64,000 nucleotides of DNA from contig JAUWOR010000005.1 of assembly GCA_030612025.1 (NCBI GenBank), positions 48,605-112,604 on the forward strand, written 5' to 3'. This DNA comes from Dehalococcoidia bacterium. GTDB lineage: Bacteria > Chloroflexota > Dehalococcoidia > GIF9 > AB-539-J10. A model generated the notes under the pieces. That model was not told the DNA's origin. It saw nothing but the letters and a program-made list of their open reading frames with translations, and did not search any database. The translations under genes were made by a program, and so were the position numbers. Of this stretch, positions 2,627 to 25,422 are shown in pieces; the stretch's first letter is position 1; each line of letters begins with the position of its first letter.

Positions 2627-2685
2627 CCAAGCGAAGGGTTCAGAGCTTTGGCTCATCAGGACAAGCTCCGCAATGCAGCCATCAA

Positions 2686-3981: not shown

Positions 3982-4117
3982 CTTGCTATATACCTCTATA
4001 TTAAATTAAGTTTAGATGGCAAATTTAACATGGGACGATTCTGAATGCAAGTCTGAAAAGCTTGAATAAGCTAGCTAAATAGCTACCAAGAGCAGGGCCT
4101 TTAATTGTTGAGATACT

Positions 4118-5800: not shown

Positions 5801-5801
5801 A

Positions 5802-5830
5802 GAGATTGCTTCGCTCCGCTCGCAATGACA
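5802..5830. repeat. GTCATTGCGAGCGAAGCGAAGCAATCT-family repeat filling the recG-argS gap
   Basis: GAGATTGCTTCGCTCCGCTCGCAATGACA, reverse complement of the copy at 62006-62034. Confidence 0.85.
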
Positions 5831-5833
5831 TTA

Positions 5834-8329: not shown

Positions 8330-8341
8330 TTTGCGAAGGCG

Positions 8342-8623
8342 TCACTTAATTATGCTAAGGTTACAGCACTTATAGAATATCACATTTGTCTCTTTAGATA
8401 ATTTAGTAAAAAGCTCAGCAAAGAAATCCGGGGGCACAGTTGAGGTGGTGGGGATAATCTTGCCTCTTTCTAGCCTATAATAGAATTCCTCTGTGCTTAT
8501 ATCAACATTATCGCGGTAAGCCTCGCTACCAAAATTGACATACAACGGCACCATTGTAATCCCAAACTTCTGAGCTAGTTGAGGAGTAATATTAGAGAGG
8601 CTATCAGTTACAGCTTTAACCAT
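8342..8623 (-). pseudogene. Truncated DegV/FakB family gene (N-terminal ~90 aa only)
   Basis: VTDS...GITMVPLYVNFG..YRD...IPTTS is a DegV N-terminus; the frame ends just before recG, whereas the intact DegV at 31929 is 285 aa. Confidence 0.8.
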
Positions 8624-8631
8624 TACTCTCT

Positions 8632-8660
8632 GCCCCTGAAAAACTTAGTTTTTCAGGGGC
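8632..8660. repeat. Perfect palindrome / possible terminator between fakA and the degV fragment
   Basis: GCCCCTGAAAAAC-TTA-GTTTTTCAGGGGC. Confidence 0.7.
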
Positions 8661-8666
8661 CCGAGG

Positions 8667-10295
8667 TTATTCCAGCGAGATTATATAATTATAATGTGGT
8701 TGCCCACCCTGGACCACTTCAACCTCAAGGTGATATTCCTCCCGGATTTTCTGGGCTATATCCTCCGCTTCAATGGCTTGAGCTTCAGCAGCGTAATAAA
8801 TAGTTACCATTTCTGTGTTTTCAATATTGGCTTTCGTTAGAGCTTGAAAAATAACATCTAACATATTATTGCCACCAGCTATTAAATCCTCATCATTTAG
8901 AATAGCAATAGGTTGCCCCTTCTTTATTTCTTGGCCGTTCATCCGTGTCTTACGCACTGCTTTAGTAACTCCTATGGTCTTTACTGCGGTCATCGCCTCT
9001 TCCATAGCTCGAGTATTTTCCTCTAAGTCCATGTCATAACTAAAGGCGAGGGATGCGGCTATGCCCTGGGGGATAGTCCTGGTAGGGATTACCTTCACCC
9101 TCTTTGAAGTTAAAGACTCAACCTGCGAAGCTGTGTGGATGATATTCTTGTTATTGGGCAATAGAATAATATTGTCCGAGGGTGCTGCTTCTACAGCCTT
9201 CAATAACTCGCGAACGCTGGGATTCATTGTTTGACCGCCAGGAACAATAATTGTAGCCCCTAGGCTATTAAACACCTCAAAAAAGCCATCTCCAGCGGCG
9301 ACTGTTACTATAGCGATGTCGACCCTGGGCATTCTTTCTTTTTGTATCTTAATAAATTCTGCATATTGATCATCCATATTGTTGACCTTTACCTGATGTA
9401 GTGTGCCTAAGTGGGTAGCATAATCAAGAATTTCACCGGGCTTAAAGCTGTGGATATGAATTCTAACCATGGAGCAGTTGCCAGCAACAATTAGGGATTG
9501 CCCTTTCTTCTTTAACTTTTTCTTGATCTTGCTCAAATTAAGTTTTTGCCCCTCCAGTAGAAACTCGAGGCAATATCCATAAGGCACTTCTACCTCAGCC
9601 GTTGGAGCCATTTTAGAAGCTAGGGGTAAGTTGGCAGAGACTAGCTGAGGTTTCCGGCCTTTCATTTTATCGGCTTCTCCTTTAAGGAAGTGCCGGGCAC
9701 CATCGAGCAATACATATAAACCTTGCCCCCCGGCATCTACTACCCCAGCTTCACGTAATACTGGTAGCAAGTCAGGTGTCCGAGCCACTGAATCCCTAGC
9801 TGCCTCTGTGGCAGTTTCTACTACGGAAAGCAAGTTTTCAGAATCGGTTTTGGCGGCTATATCGGCCGCGTTAGCGGCATCTTTAAGCACCGTCAGTATA
9901 GTTCCTTCTACCGGGTGCATGATTCCTTCGTAAGCAACTTGCGATGCTTCAGCTAGGGCCTTGGCAAAATCTTTGCCATTGAAGGATTTCTTGTCTTCCA
10001 ATCCCTTGGCCAAGCCACGCAGGAATTGGGATAGGATAACTCCTGAATTACCTCGTGCTCCCATTAAAGCACCATAAGCCATTGATTTGGCTACTGAAGA
10101 AGCATCGCTATCTGTGTTCTGTTTTGCCTCTTGCATAGCAGAGTGCATAGTAAGCAACATGTTGGTTCCTGTATCCCCATCGGGGACCGGGAAAACATTT
10201 ATAGCGTTGATTTCGGGAACACATTTCTCAATCCAGGTTGTACCTAGGGCAAACATCTTTCTCAATATCTTGCCATCAGCTAATTTAGCTCCCAT
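8667..10295 (-). CDS. DAK2-domain fatty acid kinase subunit (FakA/YloV family)
   Basis: INVFPVPDGDTGTNM, GARGNSGVILSQ, GGQTMNPS, GGQPHY; next to rpmB, degV and recG. Confidence 0.95.
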   Translation of the reverse strand: MGAKLADGKILRKMFALGTTWIEKCVPEINAINVFPVPDGDTGTNMLLTMHSAMQEAKQNTDSDASSVAKSMAYGALMGARGNSGVILSQFLRGLAKGLEDKKSFNGKDFAKALAEASQVAYEGIMHPVEGTILTVLKDAANAADIAAKTDSENLLSVVETATEAARDSVARTPDLLPVLREAGVVDAGGQGLYVLLDGARHFLKGEADKMKGRKPQLVSANLPLASKMAPTAEVEVPYGYCLEFLLEGQKLNLSKIKKKLKKKGQSLIVAGNCSMVRIHIHSFKPGEILDYATHLGTLHQVKVNNMDDQYAEFIKIQKERMPRVDIAIVTVAAGDGFFEVFNSLGATIIVPGGQTMNPSVRELLKAVEAAPSDNIILLPNNKNIIHTASQVESLTSKRVKVIPTRTIPQGIAASLAFSYDMDLEENTRAMEEAMTAVKTIGVTKAVRKTRMNGQEIKKGQPIAILNDEDLIAGGNNMLDVIFQALTKANIENTEMVTIYYAAEAQAIEAEDIAQKIREEYHLEVEVVQGGQPHYNYIISLE

Positions 10296-10402
10296 TTCTC
10301 TTCGCCTACCTTGGTACAATTGCTGCTATGACTTTAGTATGATAGCATTACTATAATACCCCGGGTATCATTTATAGTAAAGGGGGTTAAAAGAATTTTC
10401 CC

Positions 10403-10585
10403 ATGAAGTGCGATATTTGTGGCAAAAGAGTTCAATTTGGACAGAGTGTAAGTCATTCTAAAAAGAGTACTAAACGGAAGTGGTTACCCAATATTCATAG
10501 GGTTACAATTGTTGTGGGTGGGAAGAAGCAGAAAGTTAATATTTGCACCAGGTGTCTGCGTAGCCAATACAAAGCAGCCCATTAG
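10403..10585 (+). CDS. rpmB: 50S ribosomal protein L28
   Basis: CDICGK..QFGQSVSHS...KRKWLPNI...ICTRCLRS. Confidence 0.96.
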   Translation: MKCDICGKRVQFGQSVSHSKKSTKRKWLPNIHRVTIVVGGKKQKVNICTRCLRSQYKAAH

Positions 10586-11247
10586 CTTATTGCTTCCCTG
10601 ATTTTTTGTAATGCTTGGCTCATTCCTTCTTTAGCATTAAACACACTTGTGCCGACAACTAGAACTCTACCACCAGCCTTAACTATGCTAGATGCATTGT
10701 TAATGGTAATACCTCCATCAACTTCGAGCTCGGCATCCACCTTTCTGCTATCAAGCATCCGGCGCAAGCGACTTATCTTTTCTAGTGTTTCAGGGATGAA
10801 AACTTGTCCGCCGAAACCAGGGTCAACGCTCATAATAAGAATCAAATCAACCTGAGGCATAATCTCGTCTACCATGCTTAAAGAACTCGCTGGATTTAAA
10901 GCCACCCCGGCTTTTACCCCAAGTTCCTTTATTACTTGAATCGTTCGGTGGAGATGAGGGCAAGCTTCCGCATGCACGGTAATGATATCAGCGCCAGAAT
11001 CGACAAAGTGGGAAATATGCCGCTCAGGCTGTTCTATCATCAAGTGGACATCTAAAGGCAAGTGTGTCCAGCTACGAAGGGAAGCCACTACTGGAGCCCC
11101 GATAGTGATATTGGGCACGAAATGTCCATCCATGACATCAATATGAATATAGTCAGCCCCTGCTTTAGTAGCCTCAGCTACTTGCTCCCCAAGGCGAGCA
11201 AAATCAGCAGAAAGGATTGATGGTGCTAGCTTAATTTTGTCCTTCAT
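10582..11247 (-). CDS. rpe: Ribulose-phosphate 3-epimerase
   Basis: APSILSADF, HIDVMDGHFVPN, DVHLMI, PGFGGQ, EVDGG. Confidence 0.97.
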   Translation of the reverse strand: MKDKIKLAPSILSADFARLGEQVAEATKAGADYIHIDVMDGHFVPNITIGAPVVASLRSWTHLPLDVHLMIEQPERHISHFVDSGADIITVHAEACPHLHRTIQVIKELGVKAGVALNPASSLSMVDEIMPQVDLILIMSVDPGFGGQVFIPETLEKISRLRRMLDSRKVDAELEVDGGITINNASSIVKAGGRVLVVGTSVFNAKEGMSQALQKIREAIS

Positions 11248-12688: not shown

Positions 12689-13047
12689 CTAAATCTGCCT
12701 CAAGTATCAAAGTGAAATCTTGATACTTTCTTTCCCTATTTGTCAACCAGTTTTCACTAAATAAGCGATTTTCATTGGTTAGGAAAAAGGTAATTTTTGT
12801 TGAATTAAGTCTCAGCATGGAAAACAAATAGGCGATGTTGTATTTATAGAGGGAACAGAAAGTGCCGTTTTCAGATTCTGGGTCTCAGATATCATTGCAC
12901 ACTACTCGCTATCTATAACCTCTTTGGTGAGTATCTAATTATAAAAAGCAGCCTTATGCTCAAATACTTATATCTCTCCAGTTTGTTTGGGGTAGTGCTG
13001 AGTGGTGTCACATTTGGATTCGTCGACTGGGAGAGAGCTTGATTATC

Positions 13048-13470
13048 TCACCCACCCCTTTTACATTCGTACTCGCCTGTCAGAAACTCGTGGCTAATGC
13101 CATTCTGGATTGTTATTTCATCACCCACTACTGTTATCGTGGAGTGCCCTACGGTGACATCGCCGTATATATCATCAAAGTACTCCCAGCCCTTAGGCCA
13201 AAGGCCTTCCTCTGAGGGCCTTGATTTCCCATCGATAACACTATCACCATCCCAATCACAAAAGCGGATATAATTCACTCGTTCGCTATCCCGATAGTAC
13301 TCAATTTCGGCGACAAGGCCGCTTGGACTTAGCGATTCAACAGTGATCTTGATAGTTTGGGTATATGTACCTGCACTGCATCCCGAGAATAGAATTACCA
13401 CTGTAGTTAATACCGAAGCTACAATTACCAAAGCATGTAGTTTCCCTTTCCATATGCCATTCTTTATCAT
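13048..13470 (-). CDS. Putative lipoprotein, unknown function
   Basis: Basic N-terminus, hydrophobic stretch, lipobox-like FSG-C; DWDGDSVIDG motif; start reassigned to ATG 13470. Confidence 0.6.
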   Translation of the reverse strand: MIKNGIWKGKLHALVIVASVLTTVVILFSGCSAGTYTQTIKITVESLSPSGLVAEIEYYRDSERVNYIRFCDWDGDSVIDGKSRPSEEGLWPKGWEYFDDIYGDVTVGHSTITVVGDEITIQNGISHEFLTGEYECKRGG

Positions 13471-13970
13471 GTTAGGCTTTCTTTCCATTTGAAAATTCTC
13501 CTGGGATTCTTCGCTCCACATTGGAACAGCAGTCTCACTGCTTGCGGTAATCTCTGCAACGCTTGTAAGGTATGCTGCGCCTAGAGTTGCCATTATTCTA
13601 CCACATGGTTCCGGCTTCTTGAAAGAGGATCTCCTGTTTGCACATTGTTGGTTTTGGCTTTTGTTTACGAACTATCACCATTATAAGCTTTCACTATGAG
13701 CGGTTACTGGATCCAGCTAAACAATATGAGGGTTTATTGGGAATGCCCAGGTCTCCCTAACCAGCTGGTGAAATATTCTCCCGACAACCACGCAGACTCT
13801 GGCTGATAGCGGGAGTAGTTTTCACCGAGCACGGCTTTGCTCTATAAGGATGGATGTGTTATTGTGTTGCTTATACTGGCTTCAGGTTCGTTCAATAATC
13901 TATGTGAGATGGAAGCCAGCGAGTAGTGTAACCATGTCAGCTATGGTTTAGAAAGGTTGGGTAGAATAGA

Positions 13971-16757
13971 TTGAGTTCATTTGATCAGAGGAAATGGCAA
14001 CGCTGGTTTTCCAAGATCGGAGGCGAGGAACCTGTACGACCTGCCCGGCGCGGAGGCGCCCCCAAGGCAATCATAATCATAGCCGTTGTCTTGGCTTTAT
14101 TCATTGTCTTGGGTATAGCAAAGGGGTTCTACACTGACTGGTTATGGTTTAGCAGCCTGGGTTATGGCAGTGTCTATACCACTATCTTGAGAACCAGAAT
14201 ATTGCTCTTCTTCTCCGCGGCTATCATCTTTTGCATCTTGCTTTTAGGGAACCTAGTCCTGGCTACGCGCCTGGCACCCAAGACTGAAGCACATTTCTGG
14301 CCTTGGGCTATAGTACGTCGGCTACAACAGACCCTCAAGTTAGGTGTTATCTTGGGAACAGCACTGCTCAGTATAATATTTGGACTGGTGGCCCAGGGCA
14401 ACTGGGAGGTTGTGCTGCGGTTCTTCAGCAGGCAGCCATTTGGCATCACTGACCCAATCTTCCATAAGGAGATTGGCTTCTACGTCTTCTCGTTGCCTTT
14501 CCTTAACATGCTGCGAAGTTGGGTCCTGGGCGCGCTGATAATCACCCTTCTTGGCAGTGCTGGAGTATATCTTCTGAGCTATGCGGCGCAGCGGCTTAAG
14601 TTCGACTTTGCCAGGCCGGTGCTAGCCCATGTTGGTGGACTGGCCATGGCTATACTTGGCCTTTTCGCCTGGGGTTACTGGCTTGGCATCTGGGAGTTAG
14701 TCTTCTCCGAACGAGGAGTGGTCTTCGGCGCCAGCTATGCTGATATGCATGCCAAACTTCCAGCGCAGTGGATACTCTTGGTAGTGGTGCTCGTGGTCAT
14801 GGGAGTCATGCTGGTTTCTGTATTGAAACACAAATTTCGCTGGCCTCTCTACGCCATTGGGGGATGGATAGCAGCAGCCATCATCGCTGGAGGGATATTC
14901 CCCGCCGTGGTACAGCGTCTTCAAGTGGAGCCCAACGAGCTGGCCCGCGAGAGGCCCTACATCGAGTACAATATCCAATCCACCAGAGAGGCCTTCGCCC
15001 TGAGCCGGATTGAGGAGGAGCCCTTTCCTGCGGAGGGAACTCCGAGTTACCAGGATATAGTCCAAAATGAGGAGACCATCAATAACATCAGGCTCTGGGA
15101 CCCACGCCCGCTAAAGGACACCTATAACCAGATCCAGTCCTTTCGGCTTTACTATGACTTCCATGATGTTGATATCGACCGCTATATCATTGATGGTGAG
15201 TACCGGCAGGTCATGCTATCGGGTCGGGAATTATCGGCGGAGAAATTGGCCGAGGAGGCGCAGACCTGGGTCAACCGTCGGTTACAGTTTACCCATGGCT
15301 ATGGTGTTGCCCTGAGTCCGGTAAATGAGGTCACTGTTGAGGGGCTGCCGGTATTGCTGGTAAAGGATATCCCCCCCGTTGGTAACTTCGATATAGAGCG
15401 ACCGCAGATATACTTTGGGGAAAAGACTGATAATTACGTGATTGTGAAAACAAATACCCAGGAATTTGACTATCCTATGGGCGATGAGAATGTCTACGGT
15501 CACTATGAAGGGACAGGCGGAGTTAGCATCAGCAGCTTCGTCCGCCGAGTGGCGTATGCCTGGCAATTTGCTGATTTTAATATCCTTATAAGTGGTGAGT
15601 TAACTCCTGAGAGCAGTGTCCTCTATTATCGGAATATCAGAGAGAGGGTGAACCACCTGGCACCATTTTTGCAACTGGACAATGATCCCTATCTAGTGAT
15701 AATGGATGGGAGGTTATTCTGGATACAGGATGCCTATACCACCACTGAGCGCTATCCTTATTCTGAGCCGCATGGGAGTGGGCTAAACTATATTCGCAAC
15801 AGCGTTAAAGCAGTTATTGATGCCTACAATGGCAGTGTAACCTTCTATATCACCGACCCAGAGGATGCTTTGATACGGACATACCAGGCTATCTTCCCCG
15901 AGCTCTTTGTCCCCGCTGAACAGGCGCCCGAGTCCTTGCGAGCCCACTTCCGTTATCCCGAAGATATGTTCAATATTCAGGCCTCGGTATACCAAAGCTA
16001 CCATATGAGAGATGCCCGGGTATTCTACAATAAGGAAGACCTGTGGGCTATACCCAAAGAGCTCTATTTCGGCCAAGAACAGCCTATGGATTCCTACTAC
16101 ATCATCATGCGCCTGCCAGATGAGGAGAGGGAGGAGTTCCTGCTGATGTTGCCCTTCACCCCGGTGAACAAGAATAATACCATTGGCTGGCTGGCTGCCC
16201 GCTCTGATGGAGAAAACTACGGGAAGCTGCTTGCCTACCTTTTCCCCAAGGAGCGGCTGGTGTATGGTCCTAGCCAGATCGAGAACCGAATCCAGCAGGA
16301 TACCGTCATCACTGAGCAGCTTGCCCTGTGGGGTCGCGGTGGTTCTCGGGTTATCCGAGGCAACCTGCTGCTGATTCCTTTAGGCAAGTCCATCCTGTAT
16401 GTGGAGCCAGTCTTCCTCCAGGCGGAGGGCGGTGGGCTGCCACAGCTAAAGCGAGTTATTGTAGTTGCCGGCGACCAGATAGCTATGGAACCCACGTTGG
16501 AGGAAAGCCTTGCCGTTATCTTTGGTACGGAGGCGATACCGCCTGAGGAACCTGAGGTTGAGCCACCGACTCCGGGAGAGCCAGAGGAAGCGCTAAGCGC
16601 GGAGATAGCCAGTCTAATTGAGGAGGCGCAACAGCATTATGACAGGGCTCAGCAGTACCTCAAAGCAGGTGATTGGACTGGCTACGGGGAAGAACTGGAT
16701 GCCCTGAAGGCGGTGCTGGATCAGCTGGCGGAACTTATTGCTGAAGAGAAACGATAG
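13971..16757 (+). CDS. UPF0182 (COG1615) family membrane protein
   Basis: DWLWFSSLGY, DPIFHKEIGFYVFSLP, NIRLWDPRP, THGYG, NYIRNSVK, VIRGNLL. Confidence 0.93.
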   Translation: MSSFDQRKWQRWFSKIGGEEPVRPARRGGAPKAIIIIAVVLALFIVLGIAKGFYTDWLWFSSLGYGSVYTTILRTRILLFFSAAIIFCILLLGNLVLATRLAPKTEAHFWPWAIVRRLQQTLKLGVILGTALLSIIFGLVAQGNWEVVLRFFSRQPFGITDPIFHKEIGFYVFSLPFLNMLRSWVLGALIITLLGSAGVYLLSYAAQRLKFDFARPVLAHVGGLAMAILGLFAWGYWLGIWELVFSERGVVFGASYADMHAKLPAQWILLVVVLVVMGVMLVSVLKHKFRWPLYAIGGWIAAAIIAGGIFPAVVQRLQVEPNELARERPYIEYNIQSTREAFALSRIEEEPFPAEGTPSYQDIVQNEETINNIRLWDPRPLKDTYNQIQSFRLYYDFHDVDIDRYIIDGEYRQVMLSGRELSAEKLAEEAQTWVNRRLQFTHGYGVALSPVNEVTVEGLPVLLVKDIPPVGNFDIERPQIYFGEKTDNYVIVKTNTQEFDYPMGDENVYGHYEGTGGVSISSFVRRVAYAWQFADFNILISGELTPESSVLYYRNIRERVNHLAPFLQLDNDPYLVIMDGRLFWIQDAYTTTERYPYSEPHGSGLNYIRNSVKAVIDAYNGSVTFYITDPEDALIRTYQAIFPELFVPAEQAPESLRAHFRYPEDMFNIQASVYQSYHMRDARVFYNKEDLWAIPKELYFGQEQPMDSYYIIMRLPDEEREEFLLMLPFTPVNKNNTIGWLAARSDGENYGKLLAYLFPKERLVYGPSQIENRIQQDTVITEQLALWGRGGSRVIRGNLLLIPLGKSILYVEPVFLQAEGGGLPQLKRVIVVAGDQIAMEPTLEESLAVIFGTEAIPPEEPEVEPPTPGEPEEALSAEIASLIEEAQQHYDRAQQYLKAGDWTGYGEELDALKAVLDQLAELIAEEKR

Positions 16758-16821
16758 CGTATTACTTTAACACTATGGCTGATTGTTACACATCTCAAGG
16801 ATATAGATCATGACCAGCAGT

Positions 16822-17148
16822 TTAGTTTCTTCTTTGTCTTACTCTGCTACTGAAGCAGCCACCTCTCTTGTCACCATAGGAGCCCGTGCCTCTGTTCTTA
16901 GAAAGAGCGAGGGCCTGAATAACATCAATCGCCCTATCCCTTAGTGATTTTCCATTGAGGGCAGTGATTGCGGCTTGACCTTCAGACTGTGATGTCATTT
17001 CAACAAATCCATATCCCCTAGATTGGCCACTACCAATATACTTGTCGTTCATGATGGTTACAGATAGCACTTCTCCGAAAGCCATGAATTCTCGTCGCAG
17101 TTCCTCCTCAGTCGCCTCGAGAGATAAGTTACCTACATATATATTCAT
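16822..17148 (-). CDS. RRM RNA-binding protein
   Basis: MNIYVGNL (RNP2), SRGYGFVEM (RNP1), Gly/Arg tail. Confidence 0.92.
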   Translation of the reverse strand: MNIYVGNLSLEATEEELRREFMAFGEVLSVTIMNDKYIGSGQSRGYGFVEMTSQSEGQAAITALNGKSLRDRAIDVIQALALSKNRGTGSYGDKRGGCFSSRVRQRRN

Positions 17149-17276
17149 GTTGCCCCCCTTTCGCGGTAACGGGGTTATTCTTGGCCCGCTGTTTGTCACT
17201 AACGCCTGAACTAATAGCCCTTTGGAGTTATGAATACATTTTATGTGCCTTAAGCAGAAATAAATGAAGAGGGAGT

Positions 17277-17594
17277 TTAATATCTTCTCTGTCTTCCTCC
17301 GCTAAAGCCGCTGCCTCTCCTGCCACCATACGACCCGTCGCTTCTGTTATCAGAGCGAGGTCGAGCCGCATTAACAGTTAACATTCGATCCTTTAAAGTT
17401 TTCCCGTTGAGGCCAGTAATTGCAGCTTGACCTTCAGACACCGATGGCATTTCAACAAACCCGAATCCTTTTGGCTGTCCACTATACTTGTCCGTTATGA
17501 TATTTACAGATTCAACCTTCCCAAAAGCCAGGAATTCTTGGCGTAATTCCTCCTCAGTTACCTCATATGATAAGTTACCCACATAGATTTTCAT
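17277..17594 (-). CDS. RRM RNA-binding protein
   Basis: MKIYVGNL (RNP2), PKGFGFVEM (RNP1), VNAARPR, RG-rich tail. Confidence 0.93.
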   Translation of the reverse strand: MKIYVGNLSYEVTEEELRQEFLAFGKVESVNIITDKYSGQPKGFGFVEMPSVSEGQAAITGLNGKTLKDRMLTVNAARPRSDNRSDGSYGGRRGSGFSGGRQRRY

Positions 17595-17706
17595 ATTAGT
17601 GCTCCTTTCGCTTAATCTCGTAACTATTTGCCGAGGGTCTCGCCAGCATATCAAGTACCCAAGCAGAGTATGACCATAGTCATCAGCCTTTTGGTTGCTT
17701 TCTGGT

Positions 17707-17892
17707 TTACCCACAACGGCGCCTTCGTCTGGCGCTCTTTTGCGCTTTCATGCGTGCCACCTCCCCCTTGGATAAAAAATGATTATGGGCCTTTGCCTCG
17801 CGCAGAATTCCACTCATTTGCACTATCCTTTGAAAGCGACGCAGCAGGGAATCTTGGGATTCACCTTCACGTATCGAAACTTCCATTGACAT
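17707..17892 (-). CDS. rpsU: 30S ribosomal protein bS21
   Basis: VSIREGES.DSLLRRF.....GILREAK..HF.SK....R.K...ARRR pattern. Confidence 0.85.
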   Translation of the reverse strand: MSMEVSIREGESQDSLLRRFQRIVQMSGILREAKAHNHFLSKGEVARMKAQKSARRRRRCG

Positions 17893-17968
17893 GACACATC
17901 ACCACATTCTAGAGACATGCACGGGCCAGATATCTCCAGCCCATGTATGTCTAAGGGCTCAAACCAGT

Positions 17969-18274
17969 TTATCTACCTGGTCTGACTTTACGGTAGCAAT
18001 CGCTACAATACACTGGCTTATCACCGCGAGGTTCAAAGGGTACTTCGGTGTCTTTGCCGCACTCGGCGCATATTGCAGGAAACATTTGGCGTGGGGCCCC
18101 GTAGCTGTGGCCACTATTTCCGTATCGCTCTGCCTTCCTTGCCTGGCGACACGAGGGACAGCGCTTGGGCTCATTAGTATAGCCCTTAGATTGAAAAAAC
18201 TCTTGTTCCTCAGCGCTGAAAGTGAAGGCAGTCCCACAATCGGAACACTGGATCGACTTGTCCTGAAAACTCAT
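17969..18274 (-). CDS. Double zinc-ribbon (CxxC-x17-CxxC) protein
   Basis: CSDCG..FTFSAEEQEFF..KGY.NEPKRCPSCR and CAECG...VPFEP..DKPVYCSDC; SD GGAGG upstream. Confidence 0.9.
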   Translation of the reverse strand: MSFQDKSIQCSDCGTAFTFSAEEQEFFQSKGYTNEPKRCPSCRQARKAERYGNSGHSYGAPRQMFPAICAECGKDTEVPFEPRGDKPVYCSDCYRKVRPGR

Positions 18275-18384
18275 TAGATGACCTCCTCTCTTCGAAATTT
18301 TAGTTAGAGCTCCGGTCATCCAACACTTTGGGAAATCTGTGGTGATTCAAGTATGTAACAACCTAAACTGAAACTACTAAGTAA

Positions 18385-18413
18385 ATTATACACCAAAGCG
18401 ACCCACTTTGCAA
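18385..18413 (-). promoter_or_regulatory. Sigma70-type promoter of the zinc-ribbon/rpsU/RRM operon
   Basis: TTGCAA-17 bp-TATAAT on the minus strand. Confidence 0.75.
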
Positions 18414-18854
18414 ATAAATAGCCTAACCCTGTTAGTAAGAAGAACGCCACAACTAAAATCCAATGATTTTTGCTGGACACTGATGACGTGATTTATCGCT
18501 TACTGCCTCACAGTACGTCGCCTAATTGGTAACAACATGATGGAAAGTGCAGTTTTCTAGTTACCTTCAAGCACTGGGGTGTAGCCTTGCTATTTACCCT
18601 CCTATTTGTCAACCAGTTTTCACTGAACAGGTTACGCCTTGTGAATTCTAATGATGATTCGCAAAGCAATAATATTCCTAATTATACTATCTCAGGAATT
18701 TATCAACTTTTCCCGTCTATCCTGAATGCCCTGCCTAGGATTTTCAATTTCAACGTGGCTTTATTCTTCGTCTAAATCTGCCTCAAGCGTCGAGGTGAAA
18801 TCCTGATATTTTCCCTCTCTTAGCCTTTGGAAGAACAAATCATAGCTTTCCACT

Positions 18855-20075
18855 TTAGCTTTTATATGCCTTCATTTTTTCTCGGTGGAAAATGTGTTCT
18901 TCAGGTTGCTCTATGATATATTTGAATTCATTTACATCTTTTCCAAAGGCCCTCTCAAAGAATGGCCTTTTGGGCCCCACTACACCATGTGTAGCATGTA
19001 AAATGCATTGTATGCCTCTCAATTGCTGCTTAGTCCAATGAGGATTATTGACATGCTTTCTATCCTTAGCATCCAAGGGGATAAATCTCATCGGGAAGGA
19101 AAAAATGTTTAGACCCAATTCTTCGTTTAATTCAATATTTATTCTTAATCTTTCATAGAAGTCTTCAGGGGTATCGTTATAGTTAAATAATATGAAGTTC
19201 GAAAGGTGTTTAATTCCATATTTATGAGCGAGGCGTATCTTCTCTATATATAGTCTTTTGAGTTCAATATGATCGAAAGCTATCCTTAAAGGCTTAATAG
19301 CAATCTCACTTAGAAGTGCCATCTTTTCTTCTGTGAGCAATTTTGCATCTACTCCTTGGTTAAAGTCGATATAACGAAATCTTCCTTTAAACTTAGCTCC
19401 CTTGTAAAATCCATATTTCCCAATTTCCTCTATTATTTTTCGAAATTTGGAGGATGCCAAAACATTATTATCAAGGAGGATTAAGTCTTTCTTATCAGGG
19501 TCGATTTGTTTTTCCAAAGGTATGAAATGAACATACTCGGGTTCTAGTTTGGGCACTGCACAGTACGGACAATGCCATATACATCCTTTGGTCATATACC
19601 CAATACTTGCGTCATTGGTATAATAATCGTATATGCCATCAAATAGTTTATAGTCTGGTGCCAACCTATCAACTTCTTCCCACAGTCCAAAGTGAGGTGT
19701 TATGCCAGTTTCCCTTCTTACATCATCCTGTAAGAGGGAACCAAGAATTCCTCCAACTTGAATATTACTTTCGTTAGCCTTGTTCCGTTGATAGAATTTG
19801 ATCGTGTTTATTGTGATATTCCACTGAAATGTAAACATAGTAGTAATGTAAATAGCATCCCATTTTTGGTCTTTTAATTCTTTATTCATGCCTTTCCAAA
19901 ATTTCACTTCATCCCCTTGCTGCTTGTGGTAAGTCGAGATTTTCATTAATCCAAGGGGTGGATATTTGGCTTTGTAGGCTGGTTCTATGAGTAGCACCCT
20001 CTTCGGTTTTTTGACTCGAATATTAGCTCTGATTGGTAGATCAGTGCTTAAACTCAATTTGTTGTCCTTTAACAT
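18855..20075 (-). CDS. Radical SAM protein with B12-binding-like N-terminal domain
   Basis: TKGCIWHCPYC (CxxxCxxC), N-terminal LLIEP..YPPLGLMKISTYHK, LLDNNVLAS, IDFNQGVDA. Confidence 0.88.
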   Translation of the reverse strand: MLKDNKLSLSTDLPIRANIRVKKPKRVLLIEPAYKAKYPPLGLMKISTYHKQQGDEVKFWKGMNKELKDQKWDAIYITTMFTFQWNITINTIKFYQRNKANESNIQVGGILGSLLQDDVRRETGITPHFGLWEEVDRLAPDYKLFDGIYDYYTNDASIGYMTKGCIWHCPYCAVPKLEPEYVHFIPLEKQIDPDKKDLILLDNNVLASSKFRKIIEEIGKYGFYKGAKFKGRFRYIDFNQGVDAKLLTEEKMALLSEIAIKPLRIAFDHIELKRLYIEKIRLAHKYGIKHLSNFILFNYNDTPEDFYERLRINIELNEELGLNIFSFPMRFIPLDAKDRKHVNNPHWTKQQLRGIQCILHATHGVVGPKRPFFERAFGKDVNEFKYIIEQPEEHIFHREKMKAYKS

Positions 20076-20079
20076 CTTG

Positions 20080-22353
20080 CTACCCTGACTCTTCCGTTTC
20101 TTCTAACCCAATGCATTCCCTTATCCATTTCATTCCCCAATACCCCAAATTTTTGCTAACTTCAGTGCATTGCTGTTCACGGTGATGTCCATAAGTATCT
20201 CTTAGCTCCTCGAAGGATTTAAATTGAACTGAGGTTATATCCTTATCCTTAGTGAATATATGCTTAAATCGCTGCTCCCAATTCGGATTGTAAACTATGA
20301 TTTCTCTTAAGTGTGGGGTAGCAATGTAATCTAACCTTCTCTCTGGAGGGAGTAAAAGCAAAACATCTTTTTGCCGCGGTTCTCTCTCTCCTCTTTCTTT
20401 TATACGCTCATTAGCATAATTCTTTATGCCCTCAGGGATACCCCGCCGCCACCAAGCCTCGCCATGGAGGCTTTTCAATTCTTTGGCTATGAAGTTCCTC
20501 AGATTTATTTCTGTATCTCCTAAGAGCCGCCTAATATCTTCATTGCTTAATTTCTTTGGCCTTGGAGGCGTCCAGGTCCGCAGCAGTTCAAGACCAAATC
20601 CATCAAATTCTTCCTTAATCCACCATGTCATTTGTTTAGCGTTTTCAGTCAATGGCCCTTTACCGACTTGCTTCCTAATCGCACTTCGCTCTTCATCGGA
20701 CTTATTTTTTAACTTCGCTATTATGGGGTTGAGTAATTTCTTTGTCTCATCCCGGAACTTGCTCAGGTCTTTTTTCTTATAAATTCCCTCTTGTCCTGCA
20801 TACCTTAGGTAAAGCATAAGCTGTCTGAAGATAATAAAAAGTATGCGAACGCCGATATTCGAGCGAAGCCGCCCTTCCTCTCCCTTTTGCCAGTCTTCAG
20901 GGAAGGACACCCTAATGACATCAAAGTATGCTTTCAACCTTTCACAGGCAAAATCGACTGTCGAATCATAATCATCTTTATAAACTAACACCTCATTTTT
21001 ATTAATTAGCCTATTCTCTTTGATTCCCTCGCATACTGTTGTCATTGTCAGATTGGGTATCTCTTTGCCCTTGGGAAGCATACTTGGAATTTTAGTGTGA
21101 TTATAAAGAGGTGAGTCACTATCCGAGTTCAATTTCCTAGCTATCAATGAAATAGCCCGTTTAATCTGATGCTCCTCTTCCTCTGAGTCTGCGTAAATGA
21201 CTGGGTATAAATCCCACAGAAGGTTAGGAGTAACTGCTTTTTGCTCCCTATTTATATCAACAAAAAGGTTTGCTTGATCTTTCGGAGATAAAGACTCGAA
21301 GGCAAGAACAGGAACTGTATCCTTCATTTTCCTTTCGTTATTGGCATATCCATATAGTCTATGCTGACCATCAATAATCCAGGCGCTTCCGTAATAGTGA
21401 GGAAATTCAAGCATTCCACACACTACATTTCCTGCCTGTTTTTCCTTCTCAAACCTATGGAAAGTCGGTTTTTGGGTGAAGTTAAGGATGATGTTATTTG
21501 GGAAATACCCACCTTTTGATATGAATTCATCGATTTTCTTTAAACGAGGTTTTTTAACTATTCTCTGATATGAATCACTGACTTCGCTAGGAGAGCTCTC
21601 TCTGCGATGCACATAAGCAACTTTAAGCAATTCTTCAGGTTTAATAATAAAGCTATAATACTTTGCATCTCCTCTACCACCAAGGATAGCGGGTACTTTG
21701 ATATTCCTTAGGGCTGGGATTTTCTTATTCCTGAATAGGATGGTGTAAATTTGAAATTTTGCACTTGCTCCTAAATGCTTAATAAGGTCACCATAAGATT
21801 TGAGGTCTCCTTCCTTCCACACAGCATTTTGGTTATTTTTAGCGAGAACTTCATTACCTTCACTCCATTTAATACCTCGTGTTGCTATTACAAAAGAAAT
21901 TCGAATATGTCTATCATTGTATTTCGCTTTAATCGAAGCGGTAATATCCCTCTTTAAATCGGAGATTTCGTGAATGTCCCTCCGTGAGATTTGTGTCTCA
22001 TGGGTGCTAGCTTTACATTCCACAACAAATGCATCGTTTCCACTCTTAGCAAACACATCAATCTGTTTCTGGATCGGCCCTGCCTGTATTCTAAAGTTTC
22101 TGTCTTTATTCATTTCTGCAAAGCCCGTATCGTAAAAAAGCAACCAAACCTCATCTTCTAGCAATTCATCGAGTTCCTTCTCTTTAGATAATCTTGCCTT
22201 ATTCTTCGGTTGCTTCGGTTTGAGCTCCCATCCGTGTTGTAAATAGGAATCCCGCGCAGCTTGAGAGACTGTTAGTTCGTGATATTTCTTCTTTCGTTGT
22301 CTCGCAGTTTTATTCAGCTCTTCGTTTTGGACTAAATCTCCGTAGAAGTACAA
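20080..22353 (-). CDS. DGQHR (DndB-like) domain protein with N-terminal PD-(D/E)XK nuclease-like and C-terminal Swt1-like HEPN domains
   Basis: QIDVFAK...VVECKAS; YQR...FPNNIILN...IIDGQHRLYGY...LFVDINREQK; EINLRNFI...WWRRGIP...ELRDTYGH (R-x4-H). Confidence 0.85.
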   Translation of the reverse strand: MYFYGDLVQNEELNKTARQRKKKYHELTVSQAARDSYLQHGWELKPKQPKNKARLSKEKELDELLEDEVWLLFYDTGFAEMNKDRNFRIQAGPIQKQIDVFAKSGNDAFVVECKASTHETQISRRDIHEISDLKRDITASIKAKYNDRHIRISFVIATRGIKWSEGNEVLAKNNQNAVWKEGDLKSYGDLIKHLGASAKFQIYTILFRNKKIPALRNIKVPAILGGRGDAKYYSFIIKPEELLKVAYVHRRESSPSEVSDSYQRIVKKPRLKKIDEFISKGGYFPNNIILNFTQKPTFHRFEKEKQAGNVVCGMLEFPHYYGSAWIIDGQHRLYGYANNERKMKDTVPVLAFESLSPKDQANLFVDINREQKAVTPNLLWDLYPVIYADSEEEEHQIKRAISLIARKLNSDSDSPLYNHTKIPSMLPKGKEIPNLTMTTVCEGIKENRLINKNEVLVYKDDYDSTVDFACERLKAYFDVIRVSFPEDWQKGEEGRLRSNIGVRILFIIFRQLMLYLRYAGQEGIYKKKDLSKFRDETKKLLNPIIAKLKNKSDEERSAIRKQVGKGPLTENAKQMTWWIKEEFDGFGLELLRTWTPPRPKKLSNEDIRRLLGDTEINLRNFIAKELKSLHGEAWWRRGIPEGIKNYANERIKERGEREPRQKDVLLLLPPERRLDYIATPHLREIIVYNPNWEQRFKHIFTKDKDITSVQFKSFEELRDTYGHHREQQCTEVSKNLGYWGMKWIRECIGLEETEESG

Positions 22354-22420
22354 TTACTACCTTGCTAATGTGGCTGTTTGCATATCTAGTTTATCATATA
22401 GCCAAAGCACAAATGGCAAA

Positions 22421-22546
22421 TTAGGTAAGCTCATATTCCTTCTTGGTTTCAAACGGGATTATGTAGCGGTAGCTATCGGGCAAAGGTTTGCCTTCCTTTA
22501 AGCACTGGGTGATAAATTCAATTTCATTCTGGTTTAGTCGTTCCAT
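22421..22546 (-). pseudogene. 5' remnant of a putative type III R-M Mod-like DNA methyltransferase (copy 1)
   Basis: Translates MERLNQNEIEFITQCLKEGKPLPDSYRYIIPFETKKEYELT*; family assignment is from recall of similar N-termini. Confidence 0.55.
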
Positions 22547-22719
22547 AAGAATCCCTTGTTCCCGTTAATCCCTTACACTGCTTTGTTGGTGTATTTGAAC
22601 TTTGGCTTAAACATCTCTCTTTAATTATATCAGAGCAAGGTCGCTGTTTTGGAGACGGCTTTGACATTTCGACTCAACCTTACCATAGTTCGCCAGCCCA
22701 TATAAGCTTAGTAAGCTTC

Positions 22720-23190
22720 TCATCGTTTTTCATATTCGGTGTCTCCTACCAAAACATAATCGCCGATCCATTTTACCTGAGGTAATTTGCCCCTGACTGC
22801 TTGGTAAAATGGTCTGTCCCCGGTCCAGAGCTCACAACCCTCGCTTTCAGCCAGAGCAAGATAAGAGGCATCGTAAGCAGACAGGTTGTGCTCTAACGCT
22901 AATTCCAAAATCCTCTCCGGCTCCGCCTCTTTTAATTCTACTCCTAGCTCCAAGAGGGTATCCATAACTTCCAGTGCTTTGTCTGAAGCTAGTCTTTTCA
23001 TATTGGTGGCAGTAAGGATGCCGTTTACCACCTCGTAGATTAAAAGATAGGGGGCTATCGCTTTGACAGCTTCTAGGGCATAAAAATCGTTTCTTAGCGC
23101 AGTGGCTTGCGGAATATACTCTTCATCGTCAAGCTGCCATTTCAAGACCACTGAGGTGTCTACGACTACCAGCCTTGGTTCTTGTGGCAT
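22720..23190 (-). CDS. VapC-type PIN domain toxin
   Basis: VVDTSVVLKW, YEVVN, LSAYDASYLALA, LWTGD. Confidence 0.92.
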   Translation of the reverse strand: MPQEPRLVVVDTSVVLKWQLDDEEYIPQATALRNDFYALEAVKAIAPYLLIYEVVNGILTATNMKRLASDKALEVMDTLLELGVELKEAEPERILELALEHNLSAYDASYLALAESEGCELWTGDRPFYQAVRGKLPQVKWIGDYVLVGDTEYEKR

Positions 23191-23195
23191 ATTTT

Positions 23196-23465
23196 CTATC
23201 TCCGCCGGCCTTCCTCAACGAGTTCAGCGGTAGAAATGCCAATGGGGCCTATCTCCTGCCTGAGCTTGTCCATACGAGATAATAAAGCCATCTTATTCTT
23301 GTCATCGGCCTCAGCGCTTCTCTCGCCATCCCTGACGAGGCGCTCCTCGATAGCCCGGGCACAATAATCAGTCACAGTCATTCCTCGCTTGGCTGCTGCT
23401 ACTTTAATCTGTCTCTTAATTTCCTCATCTTCAAGATAGAGGCCAAGCCTTGCTTTGTTTGCCAT
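23196..23465 (-). CDS. Putative antitoxin (RHH-like) paired with VapC
   Basis: Small gene directly upstream of the PIN gene, SD GGAGGTG, IKVAAAKRGMTVTDYC, C-terminal STAELVEEGRRR. Confidence 0.8.
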   Translation of the reverse strand: MANKARLGLYLEDEEIKRQIKVAAAKRGMTVTDYCARAIEERLVRDGERSAEADDKNKMALLSRMDKLRQEIGPIGISTAELVEEGRRR

Positions 23466-23484
23466 TTCTATCACCTCCAGGCTA

Positions 23485-23513
23485 AGTTTAACGACAAAGC
23501 AACTTGTCGTCAA
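23485..23513 (-). promoter_or_regulatory. TA promoter with palindromic operator across the spacer
   Basis: TTGACG-17 bp-TAAACT on the minus strand; palindrome ACGACAA-N6-TTGTCGT at 23491-23510. Confidence 0.75.
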
Positions 23514-23576
23514 ATAGCTCTACTTATTCATATGATATGCCACGCTGACTGCTTTCTTGTCGGTTCCTTTTTCCCT

Positions 23577-23605
23577 GAGATTGCTTCGCTTCGCGCGCAA
23601 TGACA
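23577..23605. repeat. GTCATTGCG-family repeat
   Basis: GAGATTGCTTCGCTTCGCGCGCAATGACA. Confidence 0.85.
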
Positions 23606-23655
23606 TCTCTTGTTTGCGGGAAGACCTATAAGCCAGATTATGGGTTCTCTTACCC

Positions 23656-23808
23656 TTATCGCTGGAAGAAAGCAGTTACTGGCGATATGCGGCTGTCAGT
23701 GGACTTTCGAGCAAGCAGGACTATATTGCGATAGCTATCTGGCAAAGGCTTGCCTTCCTTCAAACAATGAGTGATAAATTCAATTTCGCTCTGACTTAGT
23801 CGTTCCAT
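23656..23808 (-). pseudogene. 5' remnant of Mod-like methyltransferase (copy 2)
   Basis: MERLSQSEIEFITHCLKEGKPLPDSYRNI...; about 90 bp direct repeat of 22458-22546. Confidence 0.55.
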
Positions 23809-23838
23809 TTTCAAACTCCGATAGCAGGAGTGTGAAAA

Positions 23839-24243
23839 TCATTCCTTTGCACCTTGCATCATTTTTAGTAGCGTCCTTTTGGCCTCTGCTACAAACTTTC
23901 GGGCACAGTCAATTTGCTCCACCGCATCCTCCTCAGTGATTTTAACAAAATCTCCATAGTCAGCATCTTCTCTTATCCCTTTTGCCTCTCTGAGGAACTT
24001 ACTAAATCCTGTGGGGAAAAGCCCAGCTTTTACAATGTGCTGGTTAAACAAAGAAATGACTCCAGAATGTTTACTGCTATCCAGTTCTTTTAATGCTAAA
24101 AGCGCTCTTGCTGAGGTGAACATGGCGTAATAACTCCTATTGACTGCCAAGCTGAAATGTCTTTGTTTGAAAGAATCTTCAGCCTCTTTCAGCATCTCCT
24201 TTGCCTTCTCCAGCCTGTATTTAGCTAAATTTACGTGGCTCAT
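23839..24243 (-). CDS. HEPN domain protein (MNT-HEPN toxin)
   Basis: AVNRSYYAMF.SARALL, SKHSGVISLF, REDADY. Confidence 0.9.
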   Translation of the reverse strand: MSHVNLAKYRLEKAKEMLKEAEDSFKQRHFSLAVNRSYYAMFTSARALLALKELDSSKHSGVISLFNQHIVKAGLFPTGFSKFLREAKGIREDADYGDFVKITEEDAVEQIDCARKFVAEAKRTLLKMMQGAKE

Positions 24244-24584
24244 AAAAGAATTCCCTCCTTTTCCACATTTTCGAAGAAGAAAGAGCCTAATTCTTTGTTC
24301 TTCTGGTATTCAAATAGGTCGTAAAGAACAGGAGATAGAGGTAAGCCGTATTCGATATCATAATTAGCAGTTATCTCTGCTAATTTACTACGAATATATG
24401 ATGTCTTTTCCTTCACCAGGATAAATATGTCAATATCCGAATCTTGATAGAAATCTCCTCTTGCTTTAGAGCCGAAAAGCCGTATAGATACAATTTCATC
24501 TCCTAATTTTTCTTTTAGCTCTTTTACAAAGGAGTTTATTACTGCTCCTTCTCTTTTATTTAAGCAGCCTAATTCGCTCTCCAT
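24240..24584 (-). CDS. Minimal nucleotidyltransferase (MNT antitoxin)
   Basis: LFGSKARGD...DSDIDI; overlaps the HEPN gene by 4 bp. Confidence 0.92.
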   Translation of the reverse strand: MESELGCLNKREGAVINSFVKELKEKLGDEIVSIRLFGSKARGDFYQDSDIDIFILVKEKTSYIRSKLAEITANYDIEYGLPLSPVLYDLFEYQKNKELGSFFFENVEKEGILL

Positions 24585-24586
24585 AA

Positions 24587-25342
24587 TTATCCTTGCCTCT
24601 TTAAGTTTAAGAAATTCAACTCGTATTCTTCAATCAGCTTTTCATCGGCAAAGCTAAAGTATCTATTATCGCCTATTATGATATGGTCTAAGACCTTAAT
24701 CTGCATAATATTGCCAGCGAAGACTAAATCCTGGGTTATTTGTTTGTCATTATCGCTGGGCTCAGGATTTCCCGCGGGGTGATTGTGGACAAAGATTAGA
24801 GCGGCAGCATTGTATTTGATGGCCCTCTCGATGATTTCCCGGGGATAGACGGCGCTAGCAGTTAATGTTCCCTCGAAGAGGTCATCCACTTCGATAACTT
24901 GATTTTGGGCATTGAGGAACATAACTTTGAAGGTCTCTTTTTTGAGGTCTCGCATAGAGAGGTAGAGATAATCGAAAACCTCTTTTGAGGACTTACAATA
25001 GGGTTTATTAAGAATCTGCTCCTCGAGGAACTTCTGGGATAGTTCCTGTATCAGCTTGATGGCGAAGGCGTTGGCTGGACCAATACCTTTAATCTCTTGC
25101 AGTTCTTCACTAGAAGCGGCTAAAACTCCCCGCAAGGTTTTGAACCTTTTTATTGCTTCTTTGGCCTGTGGTTTGCAATCGCCACGCGTACCACCCAGGG
25201 TCAGTAATAGTTCAACAATCTCGTAATCAAGGAATGCCGCCAGTCCAGACTGATTGAATTTCTCCCGTAGCCGTGCTCTATGCCCTTCCCGTGTTAATTG
25301 AGGATTGCTTGCCTTAGGCGTCTCCTGAGGTTCCCGTTGCAT
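24587..25342 (-). CDS. radC: RadC/JAB family protein
   Basis: GHRARLREKF, HhH-like IKGIGPA, VYPREI, HNHPAGNPEPS.ND, LDHIIIG. Confidence 0.93.
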   Translation of the reverse strand: MQREPQETPKASNPQLTREGHRARLREKFNQSGLAAFLDYEIVELLLTLGGTRGDCKPQAKEAIKRFKTLRGVLAASSEELQEIKGIGPANAFAIKLIQELSQKFLEEQILNKPYCKSSKEVFDYLYLSMRDLKKETFKVMFLNAQNQVIEVDDLFEGTLTASAVYPREIIERAIKYNAAALIFVHNHPAGNPEPSDNDKQITQDLVFAGNIMQIKVLDHIIIGDNRYFSFADEKLIEEYELNFLNLKRQG

Positions 25343-25422
25343 AACCCCTTTCCCGCTTTTTGGCTGTAAGCCAAGTTTTGTCAATTTTGCCCCCTTTGGC
25401 AAAAGCAAAGAATTCCCCTTTA

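Follow-up and report, generated by a model that had tools for sequence, protein, structure and literature searches.

Two adjacent genes in a stretch of 64,000 nucleotides from a Dehalococcoidia bacterium (hereafter the window: contig JAUWOR010000005.1 of assembly GCA_030612025.1, positions 48,605 to 112,604) encode a 757-amino-acid (aa) protein that combines nuclease, DGQHR and HEPN domains, and a 406-aa radical SAM (S-adenosylmethionine) enzyme. We hold, with rather better than even confidence, that this cassette is a restriction-modification-like system in which the radical SAM enzyme is predicted to make the self-mark. This reading is based on the identities of the domains, the conservation of their catalytic residues, the gene neighbourhoods and the patchy, island-borne distribution of the genes; the DNA substrate of the radical SAM enzyme, the protective nature of the mark, its sensing by the DGQHR domain and the chemistry involved are what we infer.

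The gene pair and its exchangeable partner

The comparison that carries this reading concerns the neighbours of the large protein, for which 80 metagenome loci with relatives of the 757-aa protein were examined. A Dam-type (D12) adenine DNA methyltransferase of ~279 aa, matching PADLOC MTase_II at 1e-95 to 5e-99, is directly adjacent and on the same strand in 44 of these loci, a radical SAM gene lies within 5 kb in 17, and the two never occur together (0/80). The Dam-type methyltransferase and the radical SAM gene are thus mutually exclusive beside the large gene, showing that the radical SAM gene occupies the methyltransferase position and giving comparative support to a role in modification.

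Closer to the window, the radical SAM gene adjoins the large-protein gene in all eight of the closest relatives (L081-L088, 46-70% identical; L and G numbers are our labels for loci and genomes), being 52-82% identical to that of the window in five of them and divergent (~30%) in three. Each gene is present in 6 of 61 genomes (the window's own and 60 relatives), with a close, adjacent pair in G027 (78% and 88% identity) and a divergent pair in G010. Therefore, as far as sequence comparison can tell, the pair is a real unit that moves horizontally. A first interpretation, made from the DNA letters and their translations (the sequence-only reading), had proposed a two-component system and had suggested looking for the same neighbourhood elsewhere. 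The neighbourhood is indeed conserved, in L081-L088 and in G027; the two-component proposal holds for the close relatives but not as an obligate partnership, the partners being swapped at greater distance.

The same reading had described two co-oriented, AT-rich genes 4 bp apart, in agreement with the open reading frames and the base composition. The radical SAM gene is the downstream one, with 4 nt (20076-20079) between the stop of the 757-aa gene and its ATG, and the pair has a GC content of 38.8% against 45.1% for the whole window. Searches retrieved 3118 matches to the 757-aa protein and 6759 to the radical SAM protein, in each case among 8000 scored candidates, the best 120 of the latter all being at least 69% identical; with thousands of homologues each, both are real genes. 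ESM Atlas gave only generic names, and a scan for consensus promoters and terminators returned matches at or below chance. The coordinates are collected in Table 1.

Table 1. Features of the cassette and of the surrounding island, in window coordinates
Feature	Position	Strand	Remarks
Nuclease-DGQHR(ParB-like)-HEPN protein gene (P0001)	20080..22353	minus	757 aa, TTG start; predicted reader and effector
PD-(D/E)xK restriction-endonuclease-fold domain, residues ~60-190	21784..22176	minus	E66, D99, E112-x-K114 all present
DGQHR/ParB-like domain, residues 222-513	20815..21690	minus	YQR, DGQHR and F...N..Q motifs invariant
C-terminal HEPN domain, residues ~600-755	20089..20556	minus	R718-x4-H723
Radical SAM enzyme gene (P0002)	18855..20075	minus	406 aa, ATG start; predicted DNA-modifying (self-marking) component
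N-terminal Rossmann domain like cobalamin-binding domains, residues ~22-135	19671..20012	minus	Structural search
CxxxCxxC cluster motif, C165/C169/C172	19560..19583	minus	No other cysteine is invariant in the family
41-codon N-terminal remnant of a Mod/MboIIA-type adenine methyltransferase gene	22424..22546	minus	Directly upstream of the DGQHR gene
VapB (23196-23513) and VapC PIN toxin (22720-23190)	22720..23513	minus	Same island
Second methyltransferase 5' fragment	23712..23808	minus	Upstream of vapBC
MNT nucleotidyltransferase (24240-24584) and HEPN (23839-24243)	23839..24584	minus	Toxin-antitoxin-type module
RadC-like JAB protein	24587..25408	minus	Conserved on the left of the cassette (also in G027); in G156, on the left of the intact methyltransferase

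One nucleotide past the radical SAM stop begins an open reading frame of 30 codons with an acidic tail (18761-18853, minus strand). As a third component it was rejected, since G027 keeps the DNA with a frameshift and L081-L084 lack it; it is probably what remains of a small partner gene or of a longer C-terminus.

Domain architecture of the nuclease-DGQHR-HEPN protein

Every motif quoted in the sequence-only reading (IDVFAK...VECK, YQR, IIDGQHR, F.DIN..QK, RDTYGH and CIWHCPYC) is found in the translations, and the predicted structures of the two proteins show every part that it had named, from the PD-(D/E)XK-like N-terminus, the DGQHR domain and the HEPN tail of the large protein to the CxxxCxxC motif and the B12-binding-like N-terminus of its partner. 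At the sequence level, profile searches of both proteins against PDB sequences were nearly blank, and a Foldseek search of the full 757-residue model against the PDB gave no match at E ≤0.001. A wide structural search with the AlphaFold model of the 757-aa protein, built from the family alignment (predicted local distance difference test score, pLDDT, 89.4), resolved the three domains.

In this model, the N-terminal domain belongs to the PD-(D/E)xK restriction-endonuclease fold. Its best match is AF1548 (1y88; Z 13.1, root-mean-square deviation 2.0, 115 residues aligned), followed by the nuclease domains of VC1899, Card1 and Can2 (Z 9.4-10.1) and by NucS (Z 9.1), with many nuclease domains matching at Z 8-10; the Pfam Hjc match is weak (E 0.07). 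The central domain is a member of the DGQHR family (TIGR03187/Pfam DndB, ParB superfamily): it scores 160.4 bits with TIGR03187 against a cut-off of 58.85 (E 7e-47), matches Pfam DndB at E 2e-13, and shows a ParB/sulfiredoxin-like fold at residues 223-374 (PadC 6ryk, Z 6.9; KorB 8qa8, Z 6.2; ParB-like range Z 5.9-6.9). The C-terminal domain likely belongs to the HEPN superfamily, with AbiF (8vz6, Z 8.0), Swt1 (4pqz, Z 7.6) and Cas13bt (Z 6.3) as fold matches and a Pfam HEPN_Swt1 (PF18731) match that stays below threshold (E 0.0076, score 17.0, cut-off 27.5).

The catalytic and signature residues are unequally conserved. YQR, DGQHR, F364/N368/Q371 and the HEPN pair R718/H723 are invariant in all 44 aligned homologues, and among 84 locus-encoded proteins DGQHR is unchanged and the HEPN R/H pair is unchanged in nearly all. 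The nuclease triad D99/E112/K114 is intact in 28 of the 44, and the set of E66 plus triad in 50 of the 84 locus-encoded relatives; the close clade of the window protein retains this set.

The radical SAM enzyme

The predicted structure of the 406-aa protein (AlphaFold model from the family alignment, pLDDT 85.9) consists of a Rossmann domain and a radical SAM barrel, the chain ending ~30 residues past the barrel. By this model and by its CxxxCxxC motif, invariant in 45 of 45 aligned sequences, the protein belongs to the radical SAM superfamily, with one predicted [4Fe-4S] cluster. Sequence models place it poorly. Pfam Radical_SAM (PF04055; E 7e-4, score 20.2, cut-off 29.5) and Pfam B12-binding (E 6e-3, score 16.9, cut-off 32.1) both remain below threshold, the curated NCBIfam models are all far under their cut-offs (the best being BchE, with 28 against 481 bits), and the family profile reached only RimO among PDB sequences, at E 0.017.

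The whole enzyme is matched by AprD4 (Z 20.9), MgmA (19.2), MiaB (18.1), RimO (17.2), TsrM (16.1) and OxsB (15.6), and more weakly by viperin (5vsl, Z 9.3) and spore photoproduct lyase (Z 8.6). The Rossmann domain alone resembles AerR (Z 10.3), the corrinoid protein 1y80 (Z 9.7) and the MetH cobalamin domain (Z ~9), in a range of 8.4-10.3. The six best whole-enzyme matches share architecture and fold with the cassette enzyme over 306-360 residues (Foldseek E 7e-11 to 1e-7), but at 12-18% identity, and the context of the cassette is restriction or defence rather than biosynthesis or translation. An assignment to the methylthiotransferases (MiaB, RimO, MtaB) was considered and discarded: there is neither an auxiliary three-cysteine cluster nor a TRAM domain, and since only the CxxxCxxC cysteines are invariant, the enzyme is not a methylthiotransferase. 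The modelled fold would allow cobalamin-dependent C- or P-methylation as well as a non-methylating radical reaction.

Restriction-type partners of the radical SAM family

The radical SAM family is large, its profile matching 550 clusters of a 50%-identity library at E ≤1e-30 and 1943 at E ≤1e-10. At least 561 genome loci encode it, many of them in long-read assemblies, and neighbourhoods were examined in the best 80 of these, clustering the neighbours within ~5 kb; the counts that follow refer to these 80. The most frequent partner is a GHKL/HSP90-like ATPase with a weak match to the restriction enzymes BbrUII/HgiDII (47 loci), followed by a ~344-aa protein to which no function is assigned (40), an SNF2 helicase of the ZorD/DpdE type (37), a short DpdB-like DGQHR protein (16) and the full nuclease-DGQHR-HEPN protein (9). 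PbeC is present in six loci, five of which also carry a small dnd_assoc_4-like protein and three PbeA. Further restriction-type genes appear in single loci: the DISARM genes for DrmA, DrmB and the NERD-helicase beside the radical SAM gene in L021, a BglII-like endonuclease directly upstream of it in L020 and L029, and an Mrr-like endonuclease downstream in L024. With a stricter, same-strand definition of the operon, at least one of these partner types is found in 73 of the 80.

In the part of the neighbours that was scanned with Pfam, none of 136 proteins has a classical DNA methyltransferase domain. DUF1156, a domain typical of DrmMI-type methylases, was met in one of them, beyond an integrase gene.

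The exchange of partners is visible even within one genus, as G003 has a radical SAM gene 82% identical to that of the window with an entirely different set of partners. Together with the variety of the partners elsewhere, this swap indicates that the radical SAM enzyme stays constant while restriction-type modules are exchanged around it. The locus concerned (L002, G003:C135, ~500-9600) has two BrxC/D-like ATPases, a HerA-like ATPase and a 411-aa protein preceding the radical SAM gene, with no DGQHR protein; no family match was found for the 411-aa protein.

A recurrent six-gene arrangement was also observed, consisting of a ~344-aa protein, a ~150-aa protein, an SNF2 helicase, a second ~344-aa protein, a long radical SAM protein (~540 aa) and a GHKL/HSP90-like ATPase (~510 aa). 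It is found at ~4000-11200 in each of L035, L038, L044, L046, L050, L061, L068, L075 and L079, and in others; its hosts are Proteobacteria, Acidobacteria, Chloroflexota and other phyla, and viral contigs carry it too (L163-L168, L173, L193). This SNF2/radical SAM/GHKL cassette falls outside all PADLOC systems. Long homologues joining an SNF2 N-lobe to the radical SAM core were considered as fusions and rejected; parts of both proteins are missing and the sequences form single-member clusters from one assembly source, so that they look like deletions or chimeras.

Phage and viral copies

A scan of viral contigs retrieved 78 loci with the radical SAM family. Some carry the same cassettes, and many have a stand-alone homologue of ~300 aa among small phage genes. 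The enzyme of the window matches phrog_9298 (E 1.8e-53), and homologues are present in the named phages Marinitoga camini virus 1, Clostridium phage phiCT453B and Bacteroides phage LoVEphage. In LoVEphage (L252, MW660583.1, 37164-38081), the accessory block around the gene also encodes a PAPS reductase, RtcB and a split Dam methyltransferase. The stand-alone phage copies parallel the orphan methyltransferases that phages carry. A viral or prophage cassette of four genes was also noted in L178-L192 and L202 (~3500-9900), made of proteins of ~388 and ~570 aa, a GHKL-like protein and a radical SAM protein of ~550-620 aa; neither the ~388-aa nor the ~570-aa protein has a PHROG match.

Relation to known systems

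In the Dpd system, the transglycosylase DpdA, with the DGQHR ATPase DpdB as its helper, places 7-deazaguanine in DNA. The resemblance to the cassette lies in a DGQHR/ParB-like protein beside a DNA-modifying enzyme, within a larger restriction cluster with SNF2-type helicases. Indeed, DpdB is the best PADLOC match of the central domain (2.4e-31), and short DpdB-like proteins directly precede the radical SAM gene elsewhere. Nevertheless, the central domain scores 104.3 bits with the NCBIfam DpdB model (NF041060), whose cut-off is 300, the genome has no DpdA, the modifier of the cassette is a radical SAM protein, and its DGQHR protein has added nuclease and HEPN domains.

The Dnd, Ssp and Pbe systems share with the cassette the DndB-family domain of the 757-aa protein, whose architecture also recalls SspE, in which a ParB-like domain is coupled to a nuclease. 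In the six PbeC loci mentioned above, the radical SAM gene follows PbeC, a DndD-like ABC ATPase, in the place where DndC-type sulfur enzymes sit. In contrast, the match to DGQHR_dnd_1 (TIGR04172) reaches 87.9 bits against a cut-off of 450, and the cassette has neither a cysteine desulfurase nor a 3'-phosphoadenosine 5'-phosphosulfate (PAPS)-reductase-type enzyme. The sequence-only reading had pointed out the absence of dndCDE and dpd/que genes from the window, and in the whole genome (1.40 Mb, 95.6% complete) DndC (TIGR03183), DpdA (NF041059) and a Dam-type methyltransferase (PF02086) were not found. In passages of a 2024 reappraisal of Dnd neighbourhoods, radical SAM proteins are mentioned only in connection with DndC (PMC10853773).

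Classical type II restriction-modification resembles the cassette in its endonuclease-fold domain; the cassette differs in having no methyltransferase, with only a 41-codon remnant upstream. Dpd, Dnd/Ssp/Pbe and ordinary type II restriction-modification are the nearest systems, and the cassette departs from each of them in a defining feature.

The pairs of a Dam-type methyltransferase and a nuclease-DGQHR-HEPN protein are alike in the three-domain family itself (~30% identity over the full length), the adjacency and the strand. Their nuclease set is mostly intact, and their DGQHR and HEPN residues are invariant. Their modifier, in contrast, is an ordinary SAM-dependent N6-adenine methyltransferase. 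We found no description of these pairs in the literature. Combinations of this kind have a broader precedent, as ParB-like COG1479/DGQHR domains are fused to HNH, PD-(D/E)xK and HEPN domains and accompany DNA modification systems, as noted in general by Makarova et al. (2013; PMC3632139).

Radical SAM marking of DNA has a precedent in phage M6, whose gp53, a radical SAM glycinyl-thymine isomerase, installs a DNA modification protecting against restriction (PMC8989533). The cassette enzyme is predicted to share with gp53 its action on DNA. The two differ in that gp53 is spore-photoproduct-lyase-like and uses a pre-installed amino-acid adduct within a multi-enzyme phage pathway, whereas the cassette enzyme is cellular and restriction-linked, has a B12-domain-like N-terminus, and is predicted to act alone or with its ParB-like partner.

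Among catalogued defence genes, the radical SAM protein matches no family of PADLOC-DB 2.0 at E ≤0.1. The 757-aa protein has only domain-level matches there, to DpdB and to PDC-M34B, the latter for the HEPN tail (residues 615-734, 2.3e-9) and thus differing from PDC-M34 in that only the C-terminal domain is matched. The sequence-only reading had suspected an undescribed defence system, and no PADLOC system is matched by both genes. A literature search that left out subscription journals and supplements found no description linking the radical SAM family to DGQHR, restriction or defence genes. On the reading favoured here, the cassette would be a new form of modification-based self/non-self discrimination.

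Proposed mechanism and alternatives

In the proposed mechanism, the radical SAM enzyme would mark the DNA of its own cell covalently, a task that usually falls to a DNA methyltransferase. The ParB-like DGQHR domain would load on or scan DNA and sense the mark, by analogy with other ParB-fold NTPases, and may also help to install it, as DpdB does with DpdA. The PD-(D/E)xK domain would cut unmarked, foreign DNA, and the HEPN domain would cut RNA as a second, suicidal output of the abortive-infection type. That the DGQHR protein is a reader that cuts, as had been proposed from its domains, gains comparative support from the exchange of methyltransferase and radical SAM genes beside its relatives. 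The patchy distribution, the low GC content, the variable gap between argG and argH (see below) and the lack of Dam-type methyltransferase, DndC and DpdA in the genome also count in favour of a restriction-modification-like system.

Several observations weigh on the other side. Among radical-SAM-linked proteins only 8 of 25 retain the full E-D-ExK set, against 35 of 43 methyltransferase-linked ones (alignment of 84), the catalytic lysine being replaced by threonine in 13 of the former and 1 of the latter; with the nuclease set so often lost beside the radical SAM gene, DNA cleavage may not be a universal output. No DNA-binding or target-recognition domain can be recognised in the radical SAM protein. 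The solved structures closest to it in fold have as substrates a small molecule for AprD4, a protein for MgmA, tRNA or a ribosomal protein for MiaB and RimO, and tryptophan for TsrM; AprD4, the best of them, is a B12-domain-like enzyme that is not known to use cobalamin. Each gene is often found without the other. Most of the remaining 19 of the 80 large-protein loci stop at a contig edge, and four with full flanks have neither partner. Finally, the comparative data all come from metagenome-assembled genomes and simple in-house calls of open reading frames.

The radical SAM enzyme might instead make a small molecule, either a viperin-like chain terminator or a signal that is sensed by the DGQHR domain and switches on the nuclease and HEPN activities. 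In its favour, ParB-fold domains act as NTP-binding switches, viperin appears in the list of fold matches, and no obvious DNA-binding domain is present in the enzyme; moreover, conservation is stricter for the HEPN R/H pair than for the nuclease set, a pattern shared with abortive systems that are activated by a signal. However, with Z 9.3 viperin falls well short of the two-domain matches of the B12 and MiaB types (Z 16-21), and the place of the radical SAM gene is taken in relatives by a Dam methyltransferase. Plain type II-like endonucleases (BglII-like, Mrr-like) also adjoin the gene, and what these require is protection of the DNA by a mark, not a signal; the stand-alone phage copies fit an anti-restriction mark better than an antiviral product. 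We therefore regard this alternative as unlikely. Of the earlier proposal that the enzyme makes either a modification or a signal, the modification is backed by the methyltransferase-like position of the gene, and the signal is the less likely of the two.

Modification of RNA (for instance of tRNA, in the manner of MiaB) or maturation of the partner protein, giving an RNA-centred toxin/antidote or abortive pair acting through the HEPN RNase, appears quite improbable. In its favour, the best fold matches include MiaB, RimO and MtaB, the HEPN catalytic pair never varies, the nuclease lysine is often lost in radical-SAM-linked partners, and the island holds further RNA-targeting toxin modules. 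Against this, the auxiliary three-cysteine cluster and the TRAM domain of methylthiotransferases are missing, the recurrent partners are nearly all DNA enzymes (SNF2, DrmA/B, PbeA/C, restriction endonucleases and ParB-like proteins), and these partners are too diverse for a single maturation substrate. It is very improbable that the two genes are merely independent island neighbours, with a large protein that works as a solitary type IV-like or abortive enzyme next to a radical SAM gene that is an orphan or has an unrelated metabolic role. Both families do occur apart in many loci and defence islands do pack unrelated systems together, but the genes lie 4 nt apart on one strand and stay adjacent in G027 and in all eight closest relatives, and 73 of the 80 operons provide the radical SAM gene with restriction-type partners.

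The island and its methyltransferase remnants

The surroundings of the cassette are consistent with the self-marking system proposed above. On its left flank lie VapBC, the MNT/HEPN pair and RadC, then argG, with argH on the other side, so that the toxin-antitoxin modules and radC named in the sequence-only reading are found as neighbours. The restriction-modification scars it had suspected are likewise present, as two N-terminal fragments of a Mod-type methyltransferase gene. The full-length parent of the 41-codon remnant is a Mod/MboIIA-type adenine methyltransferase of 629-751 aa, and the same remnant is found at the corresponding place in G027. The two fragments form a 97-nt direct repeat (22450-22546 and 23712-23808, minus strand; 84% identical), each copy corresponding to the first ~33-41 methyltransferase codons and each preceding a different cassette, DGQHR and radical SAM in one case and vapBC in the other. 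This suggests repeated insertion or exchange of cassettes at the 5' end of a methyltransferase gene.

In G156, an intact Mod-type methyltransferase of 629 aa and then an OLD-family nuclease come after RadC, whereas RadC in G027 and in the window is succeeded by the methyltransferase stub and then by the genes for the DGQHR and radical SAM proteins. Therefore, a methyltransferase and nuclease module was replaced in place by the DGQHR-radical SAM cassette.

The distance between argG and argH is 12.7 kb in the window (12689-25422), 308 bp in G009 (C10:40021-42916) and ~15 kb in G027, where the gap (L253, C6:61000-79500) carries a pair of a different radical SAM protein (37% identical) and a GHKL-like protein. 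These differences show that the gap is a variable hotspot, and it looks like one for defence-type cargo.

Downstream of the cassette are a protein with a double CxxC zinc ribbon (17969-18319, minus strand), two RRM-type RNA-binding proteins (16822-17714) and a 61-aa protein (17707-17892, minus strand) that resembles ribosomal protein bS21. These housekeeping-looking genes mark the right end of the island.

Implications for the radical SAM family

To our knowledge, cellular self-marking is known only from SAM methyltransferases, sulfur insertion (Dnd, Ssp) and the exchange of 7-deazaguanine (Dpd). There is, in our judgement, an even chance that the radical SAM family provides the modification enzyme of an undescribed restriction-modification-like class. 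It would then make a chemically new DNA mark (a C- or P-methyl group made by radical chemistry, or a change of base, sugar or backbone other than methylation), read by interchangeable modules of the nuclease-DGQHR-HEPN, BglII-/Mrr-like, DISARM, Pbe and GHKL/SNF2 types.

If so, radical SAM self-marking would add a new DNA chemistry with its own readers and nucleases, one that standard methylation calling would probably miss. As anaerobes and phages carry the family widely, it could then account for hitherto unexplained barriers to gene transfer and long-read signals in microbes of sediment, gut and groundwater. New tools could also come from it, in the form of modification-specific nucleases and a DNA-modifying enzyme. 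The cassette of the window is a minimal version, made of two genes.

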